Positions 4,101-32,404 of a stretch of DNA of 34,356 nt are shown piece after piece (position 1 is the stretch's first letter; the number at the start of each line of letters is the position of its first letter). The notes under the pieces were generated by a model. It was not told where the DNA came from. It saw nothing but the letters and a program-made list of their open reading frames with translations, and searched no databases. A program made the position numbers and the translations under genes. The stretch comes from Thermodesulfobacteriota bacterium (GTDB taxonomy: Bacteria; Desulfobacterota; Desulfobulbia; Desulfobulbales; DAOVYS01), in NCBI GenBank assembly GCA_034659175.1, contig JAYEGR010000028.1, positions 13,156 to 47,511 of the forward strand. The letters are read 5' to 3'.

Positions 4101-4498
4101 TACCATACCTCGCAGATCAACTCGCCGCCGATCCCCATGGACCTCGCCTGTTTATCCGTAATGATGCCTTTTGAACTCGAAATAATACCTACACCGAGCC
4201 CACTCATCACCTTGGGTATCTTGTCAGACTTCACATAGACGCGCCTTCCAGGCTTACTGACCCTCCGAAGGCCTGTGATCGCCTTCCTGCTATGCTGATC
4301 ATATTTCAGGTCGATCTTTAAAATACCCTGCACTTTAGCGCTCTTGATCTGGAAATCAGTGACATAGCCTTCACTCTTTAGAAGCCGAACCACTCCAACC
4401 TTCATCTTGGACACCGGCATTTCCAAACTCGTAAACTTTGCCATGCCGGCGTTTCTTATCCTGGTCAGCATGTCCGCTATCGGATCGGTCATTGACAT
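4100..4498 (-). CDS. rpsH: 30S ribosomal protein S8
   Basis: MTDPIADMLTRIRNA and SKPGRRVY motifs. Confidence 0.98.
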   Translation of the reverse strand: MSMTDPIADMLTRIRNAGMAKFTSLEMPVSKMKVGVVRLLKSEGYVTDFQIKSAKVQGILKIDLKYDQHSRKAITGLRRVSKPGRRVYVKSDKIPKVMSGLGVGIISSSKGIITDKQARSMGIGGELICEVW

Positions 4499-4635
4499 GG
4501 GGCCAACTCCTCAAATTCAAATTTGTAATTGTTGCTTACAATATTTTATATACTATGGCAAATCTCGAGCTTGAAACTTCCGGCCCGATCAGTCAATTTT
4601 TCTACGCTTAAACAGCTTAACAGACCTTAATACAA

Positions 4636-4835: not shown

Positions 4836-5375
4836 TTATTTCTTGAAAGGCATTCCAAGTACCTTCAGCAATGCCCGTCCAGCTTGATCATTTTGGGCGG
4901 ATGTGCCGATGACTATGTTGAGCCCTTTGATCTTGTCGATTTTATCATAATCAATTTCGGGAAAGATAATCTGTTCTTTGATTCCAAGGGCATAATTACC
5001 ACGGCCGTCAAAACTTTTTGGGGAGACTCCCCTGAAATCGCGCACCCTCGGTAAAGCGATGTGAACGAGCTTACTGAAAAAGTCGTACATACGCTCACCA
5101 CGCAGGGTGACACTGCAACCGATCGGCATGCCCTGGCGAAGTTTGAAACCGGCTATTGATTTCTTTGCCCTTCTTGTCACCGCTTTCTGACCCGCGATAT
5201 ATGAAAGTTCACGGGATGCGCTGTCAATGATTTTCGGATTCTGTACAGCCTCGCCCAGACCCATATTAAGTACTATCTTTGTGAGCTTAGGCACCTGCAT
5301 AATATTTTTATAGTTCAACTCATTCATGAGTTGGGGAACACATTCTTTTTTGTAAAATTCCTTTAACCCAGCCAT
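4836..5375 (-). CDS. rplE: 50S ribosomal protein L5
   Basis: [10 protein letters not shown] and FDGRGNY motifs. Confidence 0.98.
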
Positions 5376-8356: not shown

Positions 8357-8468
8357 TGTTTCTGTAACTCCTTATCCGTAACGAGACTGTCTGAACAACT
8401 TATTTTAAGGCAGACATGACTACGGCAAACGGCTTTCAGACCAGCTTTATTGCTGCTACAAGCCGTTA

Positions 8469-8650
8469 GGGATGTGGAAACAAATAACTTACCCATCTTC
8501 CATCCCATCTTCAGGGCATCTTCGATCAAGTAACCACTTTTAAAATCCTCAACGTAGTCCGACTATGCCTGCGGTTTTAAAAGTGGTTACTTGATCGAAC
8601 CTAACCTAAATCTGAGCGCTATATGGGTAAGTTATTTATTTCCACATCCC
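8469..8650 (+). mobile_element. MITE family D, copy 1 (182 bp)
   Basis: 28-bp TIR GGGATGTGGAAAYAAATAACTTACCCAT with 1 mismatch; TTA on both flanks; internal perfect 25-bp hairpin; near-identical copy at 26223-26405. Confidence 0.92.
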
Positions 8651-8741
8651 TTAGCATTCAGGTTTCAGCCATTAATTCATGGTTATTTTTAATATAGATA
8701 GCTAACAGCAAAGCAGTAATAGCTGTTCAAGTGGATTACCC

Positions 8742-8866
8742 AACCCGGATAAACTGAAATTCTTTAAAGGTCCTGGACTATTTTCAGTACCCCCTTGAGG
8801 GGTATAAGTACCTTAGAAAATATTTTCTGCCAAAAAGCGCAGTATATATTTTCTAAGGTACTAAGT
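8742..8866 (+). repeat. Repeat family F, copy 1 (carries one 27-nt insertion)
   Basis: AACCCGGATAAACTG...TTTAAAGGTCCTGGA head plus AGTACCTTAG...CTAAGGTACT inverted repeat; homologous to 13487-13672 and to 30631-30764 reversed. Confidence 0.88.
8777..8803 (+). repeat. 27-nt micro-insertion, type 2
   Basis: ACTATTTTCAGTACCCCCTTGAGGGGT; absent at the homologous site of family F copy 3 (30727/30728). Confidence 0.85.
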
Positions 8867-8882
8867 AATCCGCTATGAACCC

Positions 8883-9158
8883 TTATTTCTTGCCTTTTTT
8901 GCCTCCGGCATGACTATAAAAAGTTCTGGTCGGTGAGTATTCTCCAAGTTTCTGGCCCACCATATTTTCCGTTACAAGAACCGGTATGAATTTTTTTCCG
9001 TTATGGACCGCAAAAGTCAGACCAACCATTTCCGGAATTATATGTGAACGTCTGGACCAGGTTTTAATGACCTTTCTTGATCCCGTTTCCTTGGAATGAC
9101 TGACTTTCTTAAGCAGATGGTCGTCAACGAACGGACCTTTTTTTACCGAACGCGGCAC
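8883..9158 (-). CDS. rpsS: 30S ribosomal protein S19
   Basis: [10 protein letters not shown] and IKTWSRRS motifs. Confidence 0.98.
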
Positions 9159-9174
9159 TTTACTACCCCCCTAA

Positions 9175-9996
9175 TTACGACCTTTTCTTAACAATATATT
9201 TATCAGAAGTCTTTCTGCGTCTAGTTTTAAAGCCCTTGGCGGGAATACCCCACGGCGAACATGGATGACGTCCACCGGAACTTTTTCCCTCGCCCCCGCC
9301 CATGGGATGATCATGGGGATTCATAGCCACGCCTCGCACTTTGGGACGACGACCTTGCCAGCGACTCCGACCGGCCTTACCGGCCTTCTGACTCTCATAC
9401 TCAATATTGCCGACCTGTCCGATGCATGCCCTGCACTTTCTGTGGAATCTCCGGACCTCCCCGGAAGGCAGCTTTACAAGCACATAATCACCTTCTTTAG
9501 CCATGAGCTGAGCTGCGCCGCCCGCGCTTCTCACCATCTGGGCACCCTTGCCGATACGCATCTCGATATTGTGAATAATGCTGCCTAGCGGCATATTACC
9601 CATGGGCAGGCAGTTACCAGGTTTGATATCCACAGTATCACCAGCCTCAACCACATCTCCGACCTTGACACCCGCCGGCGAGATGATATAACGTTTTTCA
9701 CCGTCTTTATAAAAGAGAAGAGCAATATTAGCCGACCTGTTAGGATCATACTCAAGGGACGCAACTCTTGCCGGAATGTCTACCTTGTTTCTCTTAAAAT
9801 CAATTATCCGATATTTCCTTTTATGTCCTCCGCCAATATGTCTGGCAGTGATCCTTCCGTTGTTGTTCCGCCCGCCGGACTTTTTCAGCGGTCGCACAAG
9901 GCTCTTTTCAGGACCTTTCTTGGATAACTCAGGATTGACGATTGAAACGTAATTCCGTCTGCCTGGTGATGTCGGTTTATAGGTTTTAATTGCCAT
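9175..9996 (-). CDS. rplB: 50S ribosomal protein L2
   Basis: [12 protein letters not shown] and [17 protein letters not shown] motifs. Confidence 0.99.
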
Positions 9997-10108
9997 TAAG
10001 AACCCCGATTTTTTTTTTGCAGTTCAAAAAATACCAATTAGTTAACTGCTTTCACTAAATTATGTATATCCGTTGACGCCTGTTTGTTGGACTAAAGGTT
10101 TGCGCAAT

Positions 10109-10131
10109 CTCCGTATGTAATCGTTCACAGG
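10109..10131 (-). repeat. Remnant of GTAA-ended MITE family H
   Basis: 23 nt identical, reverse-complemented, to 26143-26165 (CCTGTGAACGATTACATACGGAG); lies just after the rplW stop. Confidence 0.8.
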
Positions 10132-10132
10132 C

Positions 10133-10423
10133 TTACAGATCTTTACGGAAGTCAATCTTATATCCTTCTTTCAGGGTCACAACAGCCTTTTTCCAATTCG
10201 AGGTGTGTCCTATATACTTTCCGACTCTCTTCTTCTTTCCGTGCATGTTCGCCGTACGAACTTTCGCGACCTTAACATTGAAAAGCTTTTCCACGGCATC
10301 CATGATCTCGATCTTATTGGCCCCGGAATCCACCTTGACCACAATCTGATTATAATCATCCTGCAGTTTAGTCGCCTTCTCTGTAAGGCAAGGTTTTTTA
10401 ATCACTGAAAACACGTCATTCAT
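10133..10423 (-). CDS. rplW: 50S ribosomal protein L23
   Basis: ANKIEI...[10 protein letters not shown] and WKKAVVTL motifs. Confidence 0.98.
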
Positions 10424-11043
10424 GACAACAACCTCTCTTCCAGCTTGCTGATGCAGGACCGTACCAGGATGATATGGTCGTAAAGCAGGATATCATAGAC
10501 ATTCAAGCCATTACTCAAAAGCACCTTAAATCCGGGCACATTTCTTGAAGACTTCAGAAGCTGTTCATTCTGCTCTGATATCACGATAAGCCCGTTTTTG
10601 ACACCAAGGGTACTCATGATATCTACAAAAGTCTTGGTCTTGATTTCGTCTATTATGAAATCGTCCAAAACCGTCATCAGACCGTCCTCGAAACGGGAAC
10701 TGAGCGCCATTCGCAGACCAAGCTTGCGCACTTTTTTAGGCAGCTTGTACGCGTAGCTTCTGGGCTTTGGGCCGAACACGGTCCCGCCGCCACGCCACAA
10801 CGGGGAACGTCTGTTACCCGCCCTTGCCCGGCCTGTGCCCTTCTGCCTCCATGGCTTAGCTGAACAACCCCGGACTTCGGCCCTGGTCTTGGTAGATGCT
10901 GTTCCAGCCCTGCGGTTTGCCAACTGCATTCGTACTACATCATGGAGGATATGTGAGTTAACCGTCACGCCAAACAGGGAGTCGTTTAACTCAATCTCTC
11001 CGACTTTTTCTTTTTTAATATTGTATATTTCCGTCACTGCCAT
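10420..11043 (-). CDS. rplD: 50S ribosomal protein L4
   Basis: [14 protein letters not shown] and [11 protein letters not shown] motifs. Confidence 0.98.
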
Positions 11044-11062
11044 CTTCAGGCTCCCCCCAAAA

Positions 11063-11090
11063 AAGGTTCAGGGTTCAGGGTTCAGGTTCC
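11063..11090 (+). repeat. Tandem GGTTCAG heptamers (family C half-element)
   Basis: AAGGTTCAGGGTTCAGGGTTCAGGTTCC. Confidence 0.75.
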
Positions 11091-11261
11091 TGGGCCATTC
11101 GGCTTAATGCCGGAAAACAGCTAGAACCATCAAAAAAGTAAATGTTTGGCAGCGCTTCACAGGGAGGTGAGCAGGCTGATCAGCAGATAAGCGCAGACTT
11201 CGATACTTAGGTATGCTGGGCAGCCTGATCGCCTTCCTGTGGAGTGCTGCCGAATATTTAC
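11091..11261 (-). mobile_element. GTAA-ended MITE family G, copy 1 (outer end decayed; no micro-insertion)
   Basis: Reverse complement aligns along its length with 15843-16023; long hairpin at 11138-11261; begins immediately after the rplC stop. Confidence 0.87.
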
Positions 11262-11897
11262 TCAAAGCGTCTTCGTGTAGATCCGCAGTATGCCTTGCTT
11301 TGCTCCCGGCACGCCCCCTTTCACCAGCATGACGTTGTCCTCATCACGAATGTCAACAATCGTGATATTCTTCTTGGTGACCTGCTTGTTTCCCATATGG
11401 CCCGGCATTTTTTTACCCTTGACCACTCTGGATGGCCATGCACTGCAGCCAATGGAACCTGGAGCCCTGTGGAACATGGAACCATGAGTCTTTTTTCCGC
11501 CCTTGAAACCATAGCGTTTCATAACGCCCTGAAAGCCGCGCCCCTTAGTGATCCCGCTTATGTCCACAATATCACCGATTTTAAAAAAGTCGCCTGCCTT
11601 AAGTTCCTGTCCCACTTCATATTGGTTAGGATCATCAACCTTAAATTCCTTGATGTGATAAAATCCACCTTTGCCTGCGGCTGCGATATGTCCTGCCATG
11701 GGTTTATTCAAACGCGATTCTTTTTTCTCGCTAAAACCAAGCTGAATGGCATTGTATCCATCCTTATCAACGGATTTCTTCTGAAGAACTATACACGGGC
11801 CGGTCTCAATGACCGTTATTCCAATGGCCGTGCCATCCTCTGAATAAATACGAGTCATCCCGACCTTTTTCCCAAGTAATCCAATCATGCTGCCCAT
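11262..11897 (-). CDS. rplC: 50S ribosomal protein L3
   Basis: GKKVGMT, KGRGFQGVMKR and KGKKMPGHMG motifs. Confidence 0.98.
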   Translation of the reverse strand: MGSMIGLLGKKVGMTRIYSEDGTAIGITVIETGPCIVLQKKSVDKDGYNAIQLGFSEKKESRLNKPMAGHIAAAGKGGFYHIKEFKVDDPNQYEVGQELKAGDFFKIGDIVDISGITKGRGFQGVMKRYGFKGGKKTHGSMFHRAPGSIGCSAWPSRVVKGKKMPGHMGNKQVTKKNITIVDIRDEDNVMLVKGGVPGAKQGILRIYTKTL

Positions 11898-11933
11898 TTT
11901 TTTTCCTGTATTGCTGATAATGAATTAATGCCT

Positions 11934-12245
11934 TTACAACTTGATTTCTACATTCACGCCTGCGGAAAGCTCCAGCTTCATCAAGGCATCAATGGTCTGC
12001 TGTGTAGGTTCCAGAATATCAAGAAGGCGCCGGTGCGTTCTCATCTCAAACTGCTCTCTGGATTTCTTATCTACATGGGGCGACCTGAGCACACAGTACT
12101 TATTGATTGATGTCGGCAACGGAATCGGTCCTGCCACTGTTGCCCCGGTACGTCTGGCCGTTTCGACTATCTCGCCGGTCGACTGGTCCAGAAGTTTGTG
12201 GTCATACCCTTTCAGCCTGATACGAATTTTCTGTGTCTGTATCAC
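11934..12245 (-). CDS. rpsJ: 30S ribosomal protein S10
   Basis: GPIPLPT and [14 protein letters not shown] motifs. Confidence 0.99.
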
Positions 12246-12257
12246 AACAACTCCACT

Positions 12258-13448
12258 TTATTCAATAATTTCGTTAATCACGCCAGCGCCTACTGTGCGT
12301 CCGCCTTCGCGTATTGCAAAACGAAGTTCCTTTTCCATGGCGATCGGCGTGATCAGCGCACCTTCTATGGTCACGTTGTCGCCGGGCATTACCATCTCTA
12401 CCCCTTCGGGAAGCGTTACTATGCCCGTAACGTCTGTTGTACGAAAATAGAACTGTGGACGATAACCGTTAAAAAACGGGGTGTGACGTCCGCCTTCTTT
12501 CTGGCTCAGTATGTAGCACTCAGCCTTGAACTTCGTGTGCGGCGTGATGCTTTTCGGCTTGGCCAGTACCTGCCCCCGCTCTATCTCATCACGCTTGACC
12601 CCGCGAAGCAGAACGCCAACATTATCGCCTGCCTCGCCACGATCCAGGATCTTACGAAACATTTCGACCCCGGTTACCGTGGTCTTCTCGGTATCCTTTA
12701 TCCCTACGATCTCAACCTCTTCGCCTACTTTTATTACGCCCCGCTCTATCCTGCCCGTTGCAACCGTGCCACGGCCGGAGATAGAAAAAACGTCCTCCAC
12801 CGGCATCAAAAAGGGCTTGTCTATATCTCGCTCAGGCTGAGGAATAAAAGAGTCTACCGCATCCATCAGCTCAAAGATGCACTTGTTGGCTTCCTCATCT
12901 TCCGGGTTTTCAAGCGCCTTTAAAGCGCTTCCGGTAATGATCGGAGTGTCGTCGCCCGGAAAATCGTATGAGCTTAAGAGTTCCCGAAGCTCCATGTCCA
13001 CGAGTTCGATAAGTTCTTCGTCGTCAACCATGTCGCATTTGTTCAAAAATACGACTATTGCGGGAACGCCTACCTGACGGGCCAAAAGAATATGCTCACG
13101 TGTCTGGGGCATGGCGCCGTCATCTGCGCCCACAACCAGGATGGCGCCGTCCATCTGGGCGGCCCCGGTGATCATGTTCTTGATATAGTCCGCATGACCG
13201 GGACAGTCCACATGCGCATAATGACGTTTTTCAGTCTCATATTCAACATGTGCTGTTGCGATTGTTATTCCACGTTCCTTTTCTTCAGGCGCCTTGTCAA
13301 TGTCGTCAAACGCGGTGAATTCCGCTAATCCCTTATAGGACAACACCCTGGTTATTGCCGCGGTCAACGTGGTCTTCCCATGGTCAATGTGACCTACAGT
13401 CCCAATATTCACATGCGGTTTGGTTCGTTCATATTTCGCCTTTGCCAT
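12258..13448 (-). CDS. tuf: Elongation factor Tu (str-operon copy)
   Basis: [17 protein letters not shown] and NKCD GTPase motifs; 396 aa. Confidence 0.99.
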
Positions 13449-13486
13449 CCCTTTGTCCTCACTTGTTGTATGATTTCAATAGAGTC

Positions 13487-13672
13487 TAACCCAGATAAAC
13501 TGGAATTTTTTAAAGGTCCTGGACTATTTTCAGTACCCCCTTGAGGGGTATAAGTACCTTAACAGCTGCGTGTAACTATTTAAAAATATTTCACCTTTTT
13601 GATTTCTTGCCACTCATTTCAGTACCCCCTTGAGGGGTATAAAAAACAAGAAAATTGCCACTAAGGTACTAA
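13487..13672 (+). repeat. Repeat family F, copy 2 (two 27-nt insertions, at 13523-13549 and 13612-13638)
   Basis: Head and tail (AAAAAACAAGAAAATTRCCACTAAGGYACTAA) match 30631-30764 reversed; its end overlaps the fusA stop codon. Confidence 0.88.
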
Positions 13673-15753
13673 ATAAATCCCCTGACTTTTTTTATTATCC
13701 GTTCGGCAATATTTTCCGGCACCTTATCGTAACAGGCAAATTGCATTGTAAAAATTGCTCTGCCCTGTGTGACGGAGCGAAGATCTGTTGAATATCCGAA
13801 CATCTCGGCGAGCGGCGCCTGGGCCTTGACGGCTTGATAACCGTTATCACGGCCTTCCATCCCGAAAATCCGTACCCGCTTGCTGTTTAAGTCCGAGATA
13901 ACGTCCCCAAGGTATGCCTCGGGCAGTATAACTTCAAGTTTCATGATCGGCTCGAGTAGGACGGGCCGAGACTCTAATGCGCCTTTCCTGAATGCCATGG
14001 CGGCGGCAACACCGAATGCCTGTTCAGTGGAATCTTCCTGATGATAGGATCCGCCGACCAGGCTGATTTTGACGTCCACTACCGGAAACCCTAAAAGTGG
14101 ACCGGAATCAAGGCCGGACTCTACCGCCTTTTTAACCGCAGTTATGAATTCAGCGGGAACAATCTCTTCATCCACACAGTTTTCAAACTCAAATCCCGAT
14201 CCCCTTGCCATGGGCTGAAACTCCAGCCACACGTGACCATACTGGCCTTTTCCGCCGGTATGCTGATCAAATTTGCCCTCGGCCTTTGCAGTTCCCTCAA
14301 AGGTTTCCTTGTATGCGACCTGGGGCTTTCCAACATTGACGCCGACCTTGAATTCGCGGACCAGCCGATCCGTGATAATTTCAAGATGGAGTTCACCCAT
14401 ACCGGAAATTAGGATCTGGCCTGTATCAGTATCAGCACTGGTCTTAAATGAGGGGTCTTCTATTGCAATCTTTGCAAGGCTTTCGCGCAGTTTTTCTTCA
14501 TCCGCCACCCCTTTAGGCTCAATCGCCGTACTGATAACCGGCTCAGGAAAATCCATGGTGTCAAGCCTGAGGCTGTCGCCTGCCTGACATAAGGTGTCGC
14601 CGGTGGTGGTGAACTTCAGGCCGACAACTGCTGCAATATCGCCGGGCCCGACCTGCTTCAACTCTTCACGCTTGTTGGCGTGCATTCTGACAATTCGGGC
14701 TATTTTTTCCTTTTTTCGCTTTGACGGGTTGTATATCTTGTCTCCGGCCTTTAACACGCCTGAATATACGCGCAGGTAAGCAAGATTACCCACAAATGGA
14801 TCTGTGGTTAGCTTGAACGCCAGAACACAGAGCTTTTCCTTCTCGTTCGTCTCTCTGACCTCAATTTTACCCTCTTTGTTTATACCCTTTATAGCCGGCA
14901 CATCCATGGGAGAAGGCAGATATGAAATCACGGCGTTCAAGAGTGGCTGAACGCCTTTATTCTTGAATGCGCTGCCGCAAAAAACCGGCACCAGCTCCAA
15001 CCGTAAGGTTGCGAGCCTGATTGCCTGAATTATCTCAGAGGCGGATATAGGTTGCTCTTCCAGATATTTTTCCATGACCCTTTCATCGAAGTCGGCCAAC
15101 TTCTCGATAAGGGCCATTCGTGCGGCCGTGACTTGATCTATGAAATCAAACGGGATCGGTTTTTCAATTACATTTAATCCATGGGACTTCTTATCAAAAA
15201 CCAACATTTTTTCTAAAATGAGGTCTATGACACCCTGAAACTGATCCTCGCTGCCAACCGGTATCTGGACGGGAAGGGGATTGGCTCCTAAGCGATCGAC
15301 CATCATTTCGATGACACGCTCGAAGTCCGCTCCGATCCGGTCCATTTTGTTTATAAAGGCGATCCGGGGGATCGAATAGTGGTCGGCTTGATGCCAGACT
15401 GTCTCGGATTGGGGCTCAACTCCCCCAACCGCGCAAAATATTGCGATTACGCCATCCAACACCCTTAAACATCGCTCCACTTCTATGGTAAAGTCAACAT
15501 GTCCTGGGGTGTCGATTATATTTATTTTGTGATCGTTCCAGATGCAGGTCGTGGCTGCCGAGGTTATTGTAATGCCCCGCTCCTGCTCCTGTTCCATCCA
15601 ATCCATGACCGCGGCGCCGTCATGTACCTCGCCTATCTTATGGGATCGGCCAGTGTAATATAAAATTCGTTCAGTGGTAGTGGTCTTGCCCGCATCGATG
15701 TGGGCCATTATACCGATATTGCGTACTCGCGCAATTGAGACGTTGGGTTCCAC
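13669..15753 (-). CDS. fusA: Elongation factor G (str-operon copy, somewhat divergent)
   Basis: [27 protein letters not shown] and GMGELHLEI motifs; between rpsG and tuf. Confidence 0.96.
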
Positions 15754-15842: not shown

Positions 15843-16023
15843 GTAAATATTCGGCAGCACTTCACAGAAAGGCGATCAGGCTGCCCAGCATACCAAAGTA
15901 TAGCTGGTCAGCCTGATCACCTCCTGTGAAGCGCCCCGCAGGAAGTGCCCTTGGGGTGCGCTGCCGAATATTTACAATTTGGTGGTTCCAGCTATTTTTT
16001 CCGGCATCAAGCCGAATAGTTAC
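15843..16023 (+). mobile_element. GTAA-ended MITE family G, copy 2 (181 bp, IS66-like ends)
   Basis: GTAAATATTCGGC ... GCCGAATAGTTAC termini; perfect 8-bp direct repeat CGACCTAC at 15835-15842 and 16024-16031; additional internal right end finishing at 15975. Confidence 0.92.
15931..15960 (+). repeat. Micro-insertion type 1 with GCG duplication
   Basis: GCG-CCCCGCAGGAAGTGCCCTTGGGGT-GCG interrupts the right arm of the hairpin; the homologous site in copy 11091-11261 is empty (GTGAAGCGCTGCC). Confidence 0.87.
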
Positions 16024-21689: not shown

Positions 21690-21851
21690 AATAAACGATC
21701 ACAGGTGCTGTAGCTGCACGCGCCCAACGGAAGTGCCCTTGGGGTATGATCAGGGCAATCAGCTATAGCTCACCTATGCTGGTTGCCCTGATCACGTGCA
21801 GGTAAGCGAGCCTGTGAGACTCCGGATGCACAGTGCCTGTGATCGTTTATT
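21690..21851 (-). mobile_element. MITE family H copy (decayed ends) overlapping the rpoB stop
   Basis: 16-bp inverted repeat AATAAACGATCACAGG / CCTGTGATCGTTTATT; shares CATCCGGAGTCTCRCAGGCTCGCTTACCTGCACG with 25985-26205 in the opposite orientation. Confidence 0.85.
21720..21748 (+). repeat. Micro-insertion type 1
   Basis: GCG-CCCAACGGAAGTGCCCTTGGGGT-ATG splits the CTGCACG|TGATCAG arm; the partner arm CTGATCACGTGCAG is uninterrupted. Confidence 0.87.
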
Positions 21852-25984: not shown

Positions 25985-26205
25985 GTAATCGTCCACAGGT
26001 ACCCCATCCGGAGTCTCGCAGGCTCGCTTACCTGCACGCGCCCAACGGAAATGCCCTTGGGGTGCGATCAGTCCGGTTCACATAGGTTTTACTAAGTTCG
26101 CCGGCCTGGAGTTTATGCCCTTTAGGGTACACATATGGGGCACCTGTGAACGATTACATACGGAGGAATCTGCTAAAAATAGGGGGACCCTCTCTGAACG
26201 TTTAC
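25985..26205 (+). mobile_element. GTAA-ended MITE family H (221 bp, IS66-like ends)
   Basis: GTAATCGTCCA ... TGAACGTTTAC termini; perfect 8-bp direct repeat AAAAAATC at 25977-25984 and 26206-26213; additional internal right end finishing at 26157. Confidence 0.9.
26038..26066 (+). repeat. Micro-insertion type 1 with GCG duplication
   Basis: GCG-CCCAACGGAAATGCCCTTGGGGT-GCG; the homologous arm in 21690-21851 is empty. Confidence 0.88.
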
Positions 26206-26222
26206 AAAAAATCCAGCCCTTA

Positions 26223-26405
26223 GGGATGTGGAAATAAATAACTTGCCCATCTCCCAACCCATCTTCAGGGCATCTTCGATCAAGTAACTACTTTTAAAAT
26301 CCTCAACGTAGCCCGCTATGCCTGCGGTTTTAAAAGTAGTTACTTTTGATCGAACCTAACCTAAATCTGCGCGCTATATGGGTAAGTTATTTATTTCCAC
26401 ATCCC
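26223..26405 (+). mobile_element. MITE family D, copy 2 (183 bp)
   Basis: Same 28-bp TIR and TTA flanks as 8469-8650. Confidence 0.92.
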
Positions 26406-26413
26406 TTACCGTC

Positions 26414-27948: not shown

Positions 27949-27998
27949 CCTTGAGGGGTATAAGTACCTTCACGAAAATATTTTCTAAGGTACTTATA
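27949..27998 (+). repeat. Truncated family F element with a partial type 2 micro-insertion
   Basis: CCTTGAGGGGTATAAGTACCTT...GAAAATATTTTCTAAGGTACTTATA resembles 8793-8862. Confidence 0.8.
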
Positions 27999-30362: not shown

Positions 30363-30629
30363 TCAATTAAGGATAAGGCTTATCATTTTCCCTAAAAACA
30401 GATCAACTGCCCCAAGATACATGGAGATGAGCATTACCAGAATAACCACTACCACCGTTGATCCAAGCGTCTGCTTCCTGGCCGGCCAGGAAATTTTGCC
30501 GAACTCGGTCTTAACCTCTGCGGAAAATTGTTTTACCCGCTCCAGTTGAAATCCGATGCCGTTGCCGGCCGGCTGTTCAGGCACAGCCCTTTTCTTTTTA
30601 CCTGTCCGATCCGGTTTCTTGTTAGCCAT
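30363..30629 (-). CDS. secE: Preprotein translocase subunit SecE
   Basis: EFGKISWP motif followed by one hydrophobic helix; between tRNA-Trp and nusG. Confidence 0.95.
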   Translation of the reverse strand: MANKKPDRTGKKKRAVPEQPAGNGIGFQLERVKQFSAEVKTEFGKISWPARKQTLGSTVVVVILVMLISMYLGAVDLFLGKMISLILN

Positions 30630-30630
30630 A

Positions 30631-30764
30631 ACTTAGTGCCTTAGTGGTAATTTTCTTGTTTTTTGTGGCAGAAAAACTCCGTGCTTATTTGTAACGCCCG
30701 CGGTGCCACATGTTTTAAGGCACTTATCCAGGACCTTTAAAAATTTCCAGTTTATCCGCGTTAG
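30631..30764 (-). repeat. Repeat family F, copy 3 (no micro-insertions)
   Basis: Reverse complement TAACGCGGATAAACTGGAAATTTTTAAAGGTCCTGGATAAGTGCCTTA...GCCACAAAAAACAAGAAAATTACCACTAAGGCACTAAGT. Confidence 0.88.
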
Positions 30765-31168: not shown

Positions 31169-31213
31169 GCCAATATCCTCGGGCCGGCAAAGCCGAACTG
31201 ATCTTTGACCATT

Positions 31214-32404
31214 TTATTCAATAATTTCGTTAATCACGCCGGCGCCTACTGTGCGTCCGCCTTCGCGTATTGCAAAACGAAGTTCCTTTTCCATGGCGAT
31301 CGGCGTGATCAGCGCACCTTCTATGGTCACGTTGTCGCCGGGCATTACCATCTCTACCCCTTCGGGAAGCGTTACTATGCCCGTAACGTCTGTTGTACGA
31401 AAATAGAACTGTGGACGATAACCGTTAAAAAACGGGGTGTGACGTCCGCCTTCTTTCTGGCTCAGTATGTAGCACTCAGCCTTGAACTTCGTGTGCGGCG
31501 TGATGCTTTTCGGCTTGGCCAGTACCTGCCCCCGCTCTATCTCATCACGCTTGACCCCGCGAAGCAGAACGCCAACATTATCGCCTGCCTCGCCACGATC
31601 CAGGATCTTACGAAACATTTCGACCCCGGTTACCGTGGTCTTCTCGGTATCCTTTATCCCTACGATCTCAACCTCTTCGCCTACTTTTATTACGCCCCGC
31701 TCTATCCTGCCCGTTGCAACCGTGCCACGGCCGGAGATAGAAAAAACGTCCTCCACCGGCATCAAAAAGGGCTTGTCTATATCTCGCTCAGGCTGAGGAA
31801 TAAAAGAGTCTACCGCATCCATCAGCTCAAAGATGCACTTGTTGGCTTCCTCATCTTCCGGGTTTTCAAGCGCCTTTAAAGCGCTTCCGGTAATGATCGG
31901 AGTGTCGTCGCCCGGAAAATCGTATGAGCTTAAGAGTTCCCGAAGCTCCATGTCCACGAGTTCGATAAGTTCTTCGTCGTCAACCATGTCGCATTTGTTC
32001 AAAAATACGACTATTGCGGGAACGCCTACCTGACGGGCCAAAAGAATATGCTCACGTGTCTGGGGCATGGCGCCGTCATCTGCGCCCACAACCAGGATGG
32101 CGCCGTCCATCTGGGCGGCCCCGGTGATCATGTTCTTGATATAGTCCGCATGACCGGGACAGTCCACATGCGCATAATGACGTTTTTCAGTCTCATATTC
32201 AACATGTGCTGTTGCGATTGTTATTCCACGTTCCTTTTCCTCAGGCGCCTTGTCAATGTCGTCAAACGCAGTGAATTCCGCTAATCCCTTATAGGACAAC
32301 ACCCTGGTTATTGCCGCGGTCAACGTGGTCTTCCCATGGTCAATGTGACCTACAGTCCCAATATTCACATGCGGTTTGGTTCGTTCATATTTTTCCTTTG
32401 CCAT
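31214..32404 (-). CDS. tuf: Elongation factor Tu (tRNA-operon copy)
   Basis: Near-identical to 12258-13448; ATG at 32404 with GAGGAG RBS. Confidence 0.99.

Follow-up and report, generated by a model that had tools for sequence, protein, structure and literature searches.

A 27-nt hairpin unit present or absent at fixed points of small transposable elements in a Desulfobulbales genome and its relatives

We analyzed a 34,356-nt stretch of the genome of a Thermodesulfobacteriota bacterium of the order Desulfobulbales (assembly G000, contig C28, positions 13156-47511; "the window" below). A 27-nt hairpin unit occurs there as a discrete insert, with exact ends, at two non-homologous sites of a small non-coding transposable element, which we call family F. 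It occupies a third site in other F copies and is found in many unrelated hosts elsewhere. We consider the unit to be probably a nested micro-repeat, resembling the small dispersed repeats (SDRs) of cyanobacteria and the repetitive extragenic palindromes (REPs), which mostly rides on F and has been inserted independently several times. That it inserts as an element in its own right also appears likely to us. The G000 assembly comprises 2.65 Mb in 157 contigs, with 46% G+C. It was compared with three genomes of the same genus (the sister G003, G002, and the outgroup G001) and with a further set of 37 genomes from other families of the order. Loci from other records that carry the unit or related features have L-numbers.

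The unit (ACTNNTTTCAG+TACCCC-loop-GGGGT, 27 nt) consists of a conserved 11-nt 5′ part, ACT-NN-TTTCAG, and a C/G hairpin, TACCCC-loop-GGGGT, of 4-5 bp. Three full copies lie on the plus strand of the window. Two of them, with the sequence ACTATTTTCAGTACCCCCTTGAGGGGT and the 5′ variant ACTAT, occupy site 1 of F copy 1 (8777-8803) and site 1 of F copy 2 (13523-13549). The other, ACTCATTTCAGTACCCCCTTGAGGGGT, has the variant ACTCA and lies at site 2 of F copy 2 (13612-13638), within the loop TTTCTTG-CC|ATAAAAAA-CAAGAAA. A 5′-truncated remnant, CCTTGAGGGGT, is found at 27949-27959 (plus strand) and is directly followed by a palindromic b-type module, ATAAGTACCTT..AAGGTACTTAT (27960-27997). These four positions were named in the original prediction, which was made from the letters of the window, and are confirmed by the letters. 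The exact 16-nt core of the unit is present at 8788, 13534 and 13623, and a search allowing ≤2 mismatches gave three matches in the window against a mean of 0.02 in shuffled sequences, none of which (0/100) reached three. The predicted hairpin TACCCC/GGGGTA does fold, though only weakly on its own (-4.4 kcal/mol as DNA, z -1.6); 15 of 200 shuffles were as stable, and folding of the isolated unit is not significant against them. A proposed third variant at 26114, TATGCCCTTTAGGGTA, is not supported: the pattern T[AG]TGCCCTTTAGGG[TC]A matches once in the whole genome, so it is not a repeat family here. The type 1 hairpin, [AG]TGCCCTTGGGGT, which lies in the window at 15941-15960, 21729-21748 and 26047-26066, occurs 71 times genome-wide, in several different host contexts, and the letters that follow it are GCG or ACG, not ATAA.

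Family F elements have a left arm, CCCAGATAAACTGGAAWTTTTTAAAGGTCCTGG, that begins after (C)TAA, then the unit or nothing, and then one of four palindromic modules (a, b, c or d) that start with ATAAGTRCCTT and finish with AAGGYACTAA. Three full copies are within the window. F copy 1 (8744-8864, plus strand) comprises the left arm, a unit and a d-like hairpin module and is located in the rpsS-rplV spacer; it is missing from this spacer in G001, G002 and G003. F copy 2 (13490-13672, plus strand), of subfamily a, lies between tuf and fusA, with CTAA just before it, and its right end carries the complement of the fusA stop codon. F copy 3 (30633-30760, minus strand), of subfamily c, ends 3 nt before the ATG of the open reading frame (ORF) at 30363-30629. 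Both unit sites are empty in this copy, and the two empty junctions are as predicted: CCTGG|ATAAGT (30728/30727) and GCC|ACAAAAAACAAG (30667/30666), on the minus strand.

The same alternation of filled and empty sites extends over the whole of G000. A BLAST search with the left arm returned 125 matches of ≥18 nt, which gives ~125 copies of F, and 88 full elements were extracted from 254 matches to the left-arm core. Elements with no, one and two units number 24, 6 and 4 in subfamily a and 8, 6 and 1 in subfamily d; those with none and with one number 9 and 7 in b, 6 and 6 in c, and 4 and 7 among the unclassified. Two of the elements counted as unit-free (C131:4459 and C138:5521, 155-156 nt) carry decayed units that the pattern missed. 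When the unit is stripped, element lengths return to 128 nt (a), 69 nt (b), 127 nt (c) and 94-96 nt (d). The indel measures 23-29 nt, mostly 27-28, and occurs at fixed points. Site 1, CCTGG|ATAAGT, is at the foot of a long hairpin; of 108 junctions classified with a 14-nt anchor, 53 contain the unit and 55 do not (a further 51 anchor matches were scored as "other"; nearly all are chance matches outside F and four belong to other kinds of F). Sites 2 and 3 are in hairpin loops. Site 2, TTGCC|ATAAAAAAC (also written TTGCC|ATAAAAAACAAG), is filled in ~13 and empty in ~45 copies; site 3, CTGCC|AGAAACGCG, has the unit in one copy (C153) and lacks it in ~18.

The 11-nt 5′ part of the unit and the F backbone are nearly invariant in G000. 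Mutations concentrate in the hairpin part: the 53 site-1 units show 37 distinct versions of it, many differing in the length of the C or G run. One rare variant, ACTCTGTTCAG (ACTCTG), occurs at site 1 at C131:4476 and at two loci of G001 (L193 and L231), and at site 2 at C78:1096. Single-nucleotide polymorphisms (SNPs) of the backbone are common to filled and empty F copies, and thus the state of the unit has changed repeatedly or was passed between copies. The minimum of two insertion events that had been deduced from the window is a fair reading for the genus.

Unit state changes at fixed F copies between the sister genomes. G000 and G003 have in common four F copies whose site 1 is readable in both genomes, and three of them differ there, being filled in G000 and empty in G003. 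The best anchored is C131:8178, where G003 (the tail of its contig C274) has the empty junction CCTGG|ATAAGTGCC; identity of the locus is secured by unique flanking sequence and a private SNP of the left arm (CTAGAAA), and G001 is F-less at this place. The other two are C131:4460 and the fusA-tuf copy of the window, whose site 2 is filled. The fourth copy, C12:12611, is filled in both genomes and has the same decayed hairpin in each. A different 35-nt element replaces F copy 2 between the tuf and fusA flanks (window 13486-13670) in three metagenome runs from three studies (X1, X2 and X3), and G001 has a like element at the tuf-fusA place where G000 has F copy 2. Logan contigs over 13300-13900 gave a family-wide signal ~1000-fold deeper and no information on the unit at that locus.

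Family F moves independently and has no need of the unit. We examined 14 F copies of G000, 12 of which had orthologous flanks in the same-genus genomes, and all 12 are F-less in at least one of them. The F-less sites read AACTAA|AAATTT, TATTTAA|TGAAAT, GCGTAA|ACAACA and CCCTGA|ATCATG. The F copies of G000 start directly after TAA or TGA, and therefore F inserts 3′ of a stop-like triplet in a single orientation. F itself terminates in TAA, and there is no target duplication at the TGA site. Insertions missing from G003 include both filled copies (C27:29814 and C27:39204) and empty ones (C147:12267 and C147:15237). Subfamily-a copies without the unit are the most numerous and among the least diverged (1-5 differences from the consensus, vs 2-9 in filled copies); the 128-nt backbone has few variable sites, too few for a tree. 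As F moves with or without the unit, most units in G000 are passengers. An element of another type lies within an F left arm at C8 (~39649-39845, minus strand) and is flanked by a 9-bp direct repeat, AGGTCCTGG; it duplicates its target, unlike F and the 27-nt unit.

The unit is not confined to these host positions, as the same unit is present in unrelated hosts across the phylum. The pattern TTTCAGTACCCC-N3-9-GGGTAT has 44 matches in G000 and 157, 10 and 40 matches in the three same-genus genomes; 8 of the 37 genomes from other families of the order have 1-4 copies. The reversed pattern, used as a control, has 0 matches in every genome. In a scan of contigs from one genome per species, the unit was found in at least 117 stretches, where ~1 would be expected by chance according to our own arithmetic. 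The record labels among the matches listed include Desulfopila, Desulforhopalus, Desulfocapsa, Desulfurivibrio, Desulfotalea, Desulfonema, Syntrophorhabdus and Smithellaceae. At least four low-coverage contigs labelled Promethearchaeota (L027, L043, L059, L081, L085) carry ordinary F copies with the unit, and are probably mis-binned bacterial contigs.

Among the matches listed, 144 occurrences of the unit were grouped by flank into 50 clusters; one is due to chance, leaving 49 real contexts. This clustering over-splits related hosts; by eye there are at least 15 mutually unalignable upstream contexts. The 3′ flank is ATAA in 43 of the 49, AGAA in two, the next tandem unit in three and GCAA in one. 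The flank alignment called for in the original prediction thus gives a target on the 3′ side, mostly ATAA, and no duplication beyond one ambiguous A. The orientation of the unit is fixed relative to this asymmetric target, whichever the host strand. Sites 1 and 3 are both filled in a record labelled Desulfonema (L026). Another genus has a second host, family B (left arm CTAACACCGGTAAACGGTAAGTGAGGCCGGC). Its site 1 is filled in 11 copies and empty in 7; its site 2, CTGTC|ATAAAAAACAAG, lies on the host's other strand, with 8 copies filled and 13 empty. Because the loci were found through a unit, these counts overstate the filled state. Unit boundaries in family B are as in F, and both ACTCA and ACTCT occur at both of its sites. 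Head-to-tail arrays of 2-3 units (L028, L092, L056, L066 and L086) fix the boundaries of the unit as ACT...GGGGT.

The 27-nt unit itself was found in no gene here. A related 21-nt unit, CTTGTGCCCCCTTGCGGGGTA, is present in three identical copies, each of them in frame and with both orientations represented, within a single helicase ORF of 2031 residues (C88:2140-8235, minus strand; units at C88:3143-3163, 4491-4511 and 4906-4926). Homologues have the Pfam domains DEAD/helicase_C and AAA_11/AAA_12. All 15 aligned homologues (40-74% identity) are without exactly the seven residues at two of the three places; the third is in a variable stretch. Among 12 relatives searched, the only orthologue found was that of G003, which carries the same three units, so that the inserts cannot be dated. 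Their 3′ flanks, ATAAGCG, AGACGCG and AAACTC, recall those of the 27-nt unit, and the 21-mer has no other copy in G000. In this lineage, small C/G hairpin units can thus insert de novo, and a kinship of the 21-nt and 27-nt units is suggested by their likeness. A metagenome scan for the 21-nt type gave a number of matches near chance for 16 fixed bases (by rough arithmetic of our own), and the exact G000 21-mer was in none of 80 metagenome loci. Tandem arrays stand out among these, at L259 (3486-3565) and L312 (2560-2619), with 20-nt hairpin units, CTTGTGCCCC-loop-GGGGTA, repeated 3-5 times head to tail.

How might such a unit be inserted? Its ends, ACT... and ...GGGGT, are not inverted repeats, and the unit departs from a classical miniature inverted-repeat transposable element derived from a DDE transposon in lacking terminal inverted repeats and, beyond the one ambiguous A, a target-site duplication. 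The exact ends, the asymmetric 4-nt site on one side, the single orientation and the seamless empty sites are the rules of Y1 single-strand transposition. In the portion of PMC3597680 that was available, IS200/IS605 elements are described as inserting 3′ of a fixed tetra- or pentanucleotide in single-stranded DNA, with recognition via subterminal hairpins. By analogy, we tentatively suggest a Y1 transposase as the responsible enzyme. PF01797 (Y1_Tnp) has 14 matches in G000, and IS200-like tnpA genes of the genus have CCCC-(C)TTNA-GGGG hairpins downstream, e.g. CCCCTTTGAGGGG. Among the IS200-like TnpA genes of G000 are those at C70:11117 and C39:566. Five RAYT-like Y1 genes (C97:33196, C96:34062, C54:6513, C127:5533 and C58:12918), with frames of ~170-330 residues from stop to stop, are flanked by short repeats of their own, GGGGTCAGAGTAA, GGGGACAGACCACG and GGGTCAGGTCTTGAAA.

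That the unit enters and leaves DNA on its own is, in our view, likely. Its most probable route, which we propose tentatively, would be as a single-stranded hairpin handled in trans by a Y1 HUH transposase of the IS200/IS605-RAYT kind. Insertion would occur 3′ of TTAT on the complementary strand, where the unit reads TTAT|ACCCC-loop-GGGGGTACTGAAANNGT, i.e., 5′ of ATAA, and excision would be seamless. On a fuller reading, a rather doubtful possibility, the single 27-nt hairpin would be all the substrate that such a host-encoded enzyme requires. Phylum-wide spread would then proceed via the hairpin feet and loops of other single-strand mini-transposons, and the 21-nt cousin would land in frame in genes.

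Several observations count against an independently inserting unit and against the proposed enzyme. None of the Y1 genes read (14 in G000 and loci L140-L147 from G000-G003) is flanked by the unit, the nearest being within an F element ~580 nt upstream at L146, and the link to the enzyme is therefore drawn from likeness. The unit has one hairpin, at one end, and IS200/IS605 ends have two. The idea of a mobile micro-element, as originally predicted, stands as far as the unit is a discrete insert; it is weakened by the fact that in G000 the unit is never outside F and most copies spread with F. All 68 units of G000 recognized by pattern are within an F context, and other matches to the 12-mer TTTCAGTACCCC have no hairpin. 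Moreover, the 5′ variant is tied to the site: ACTAT marks the 53 site-1 units, and ACTCA or close variants mark sites 2 and 3 (15 ACTCA-type units by pattern, one of them a site-1 copy). Free hopping within G000 does not predict this; carriage by F would account for it, as would gene conversion among F copies, and we infer that most copies multiplied by riding on F and not by jumping on their own. The step CAG|ATAAAC in the F left arm is never filled among the matches listed, so ATAA alone is insufficient as a target. In other genera the unit is found in one architecture (short arm, unit and ATAAG-hairpin) or in hairpin loops, and the hosts may thus be distant relatives that inherited it. At L059, left arm, unit and ATAA form a complete 63-nt insertion 3′ of TAA, with none at C127 of G000, and the unit could thus be the right-end hairpin of that short element. 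Two of the three differences between the sister genomes (C131:4460 and the fusA-tuf copy) are weaker evidence because the G003 contig ends there, >55 nt from a unique anchor. Finally, G001 is F-less at two of the polymorphic loci and has a different small element at the third, so gain and loss of the unit cannot be told apart.

Many of the same facts would suit an alternative that we hold to be unlikely though worth serious weight, in which the unit is an ancestral module of the TAA-targeting mini-element superfamily, such as the hairpin at the right end of a short form. Empty copies would then be precise deletions, and the patchwork would result from recombination or gene conversion among ~100 near-identical copies. 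Filled and empty F copies could in that case descend from two old lineages reshuffled by gene conversion. The restriction to F in G000, the site-tied 5′ variants, the 63-nt insertion, the recurrence of one architecture in other genera and the backbone SNPs common to filled and empty copies all agree with this, as do recombinants in which a site-1 unit runs on into the sequence downstream of site 2 or site 3 (C75:9183, C52:8665 and C111:7728). It does not readily accommodate the finding that the unit has identical 27-nt ends at all three F sites, which are non-homologous, and again in family B, where one site is on the other strand of the host, and it leaves the head-to-tail arrays unexplained. 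Sites 2 and 3 are in hairpin loops and not at element ends, and a related 21-nt unit has been inserted in a conserved gene. Slippage would not yield exact deletion either, because the boundaries share no direct repeat beyond a single A.

The insertions could also be real and have come about without an HUH transposase, via RNA or templated repair. The unit would be copied into hairpin feet and loops by reverse transcription, or when a stalled fork switches template, and this route has reportedly been proposed for the cyanobacterial SDRs. The location of the sites and the lack of a cognate gene flanked by the unit among the Y1 genes read are in line with this, and the hypervariable hairpin would fit error-prone copying, but slippage in the C and G runs also explains that variability. 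No reverse-transcriptase signal is known here, although no search aimed at one was made, and the combination of seamless empty sites with a strict orientation to the asymmetric 4-nt target is the outcome expected of Y1 enzymes in the available part of PMC3597680; we regard this route as improbable. More improbable still, to the point of being hardly credible, is that the unit is not selfish DNA but a selected cis-acting signal, an RNA hairpin or protein-binding site, that regulates neighboring genes. In its favor, the unit hardly changes from one family of the order to another, in strongly different hosts, and F copies are located inside ribosomal-protein and translation operons. However, all three full units of the window run antisense to the operons and F copy 3, whose sites are empty, is in the sense direction, the hairpin is quick to decay in G000, about half of the F site-1 junctions have no unit, and no Rfam family other than tRNA reaches the gathering score. 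Weak Rfam matches within 13440-13720, PreQ1 (18.8 bits, E 0.13) and CRISPR-DR37 (E 1.9), were treated as chance.

From the order and size of its ORFs we read the minus strand of the window as containing the rpoB-rpoC, str and S10 ribosomal operons. The five Rfam matches at gathering score are all tRNAs. The two tuf copies share a 300-nt stretch with 99% identity (12253-12552 vs 31209-31508), as expected under gene-conversion homogenization. The rpsS-rplV spacer contains a ~430-nt stretch (8447-8875) that is missing in G003, which has 4 nt there, and in G001 and G002. It includes F copy 1 and a second repeat (8461-8653) that recurs at 26215-26408 with 93-98% identity.

Among known systems, the closest in size class are the small dispersed repeats SDR1-8 of heterocystous cyanobacteria, 21-27 nt long, reportedly described by Elhai et al. 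in 2008 in Genome Res 18:1484; we know of no enzyme for them. Like these, the unit is a dispersed hairpin repeat with conserved flanks, nested in miniature transposons and in or beside itself, and present or absent in otherwise identical repeats. It differs, with SDRs compared by description only, in being from another phylum and in having a defined 4-nt ATAA target and a single orientation. Rickettsia palindromic elements are inserted in frame in genes, and BOX (pneumococcal) and ERIC (enterobacterial) are modular repeats; all are 45-150 nt long, unlike the 27-nt unit. The related 21-nt unit in the helicase gene resembles the former, although the 27-nt unit itself is in no gene here, and modules present or absent within a larger repeat recall the latter. 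The SDR paper is cited in the accessible parts of PMC3116915 and PMC5861425, and those of PMC5861425 describe SDRs as confined to Nostocaceae. Our literature search returned no report of such units in Desulfobulbales-like bacteria, which is no proof of absence in print.

REP/REPIN-RAYT systems, as far as the available portions of PMC3116915, PMC3479197 and PMC3733652 describe them, have in common with the unit a 20-40 nt hairpin repeat, high copy number, RAYT-like genes and mosaic clusters. The REP head next to the stem is given as GTAG or CGTC in the part of PMC3733652 available. By that description the unit departs from REPs, since its stem is preceded by CAGTAC, reading GTAC, with no GTAG or CGTC head. 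In addition, it flanks no Y1 gene examined, the RAYT-like genes carry other flanking repeats, and it is nested in other mobile elements and not free in intergenic DNA. To the extent that the sources available cover them, IS200/IS605 elements and the gene-less palindrome-associated transposable elements (PATEs) share with the unit a fixed asymmetric tetranucleotide, one orientation, no duplication, seamless empty sites and a hairpin near the end. They have two subterminal hairpins and more than 100 nt, in contrast to one hairpin and 27 nt here, where the Y1 transposase is a candidate only. IS200/IS605-like rules are seen in the host F too, with TAA as the target.

To our knowledge, mobile DNA below ~100 nt is barely documented, with almost nothing to set beside the cyanobacterial SDRs since 2008. 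The 27-nt unit may rank among the smallest site-specific mobile DNAs, and its exact ends, four-base oriented target, clean empty sites, differing sister loci and few candidate enzymes could make the question testable. The unit and its hosts also matter for annotation, as they are located in ribosomal-protein and translation operons, at stop and start codons, and the related 21-nt unit adds seven residues at three places of a helicase. If the unit is indeed a substrate of a Y1 transposase, it would be the smallest site-specific mobile DNA with a defined target, and a mechanism common to it and the cyanobacterial SDRs would be suggested.

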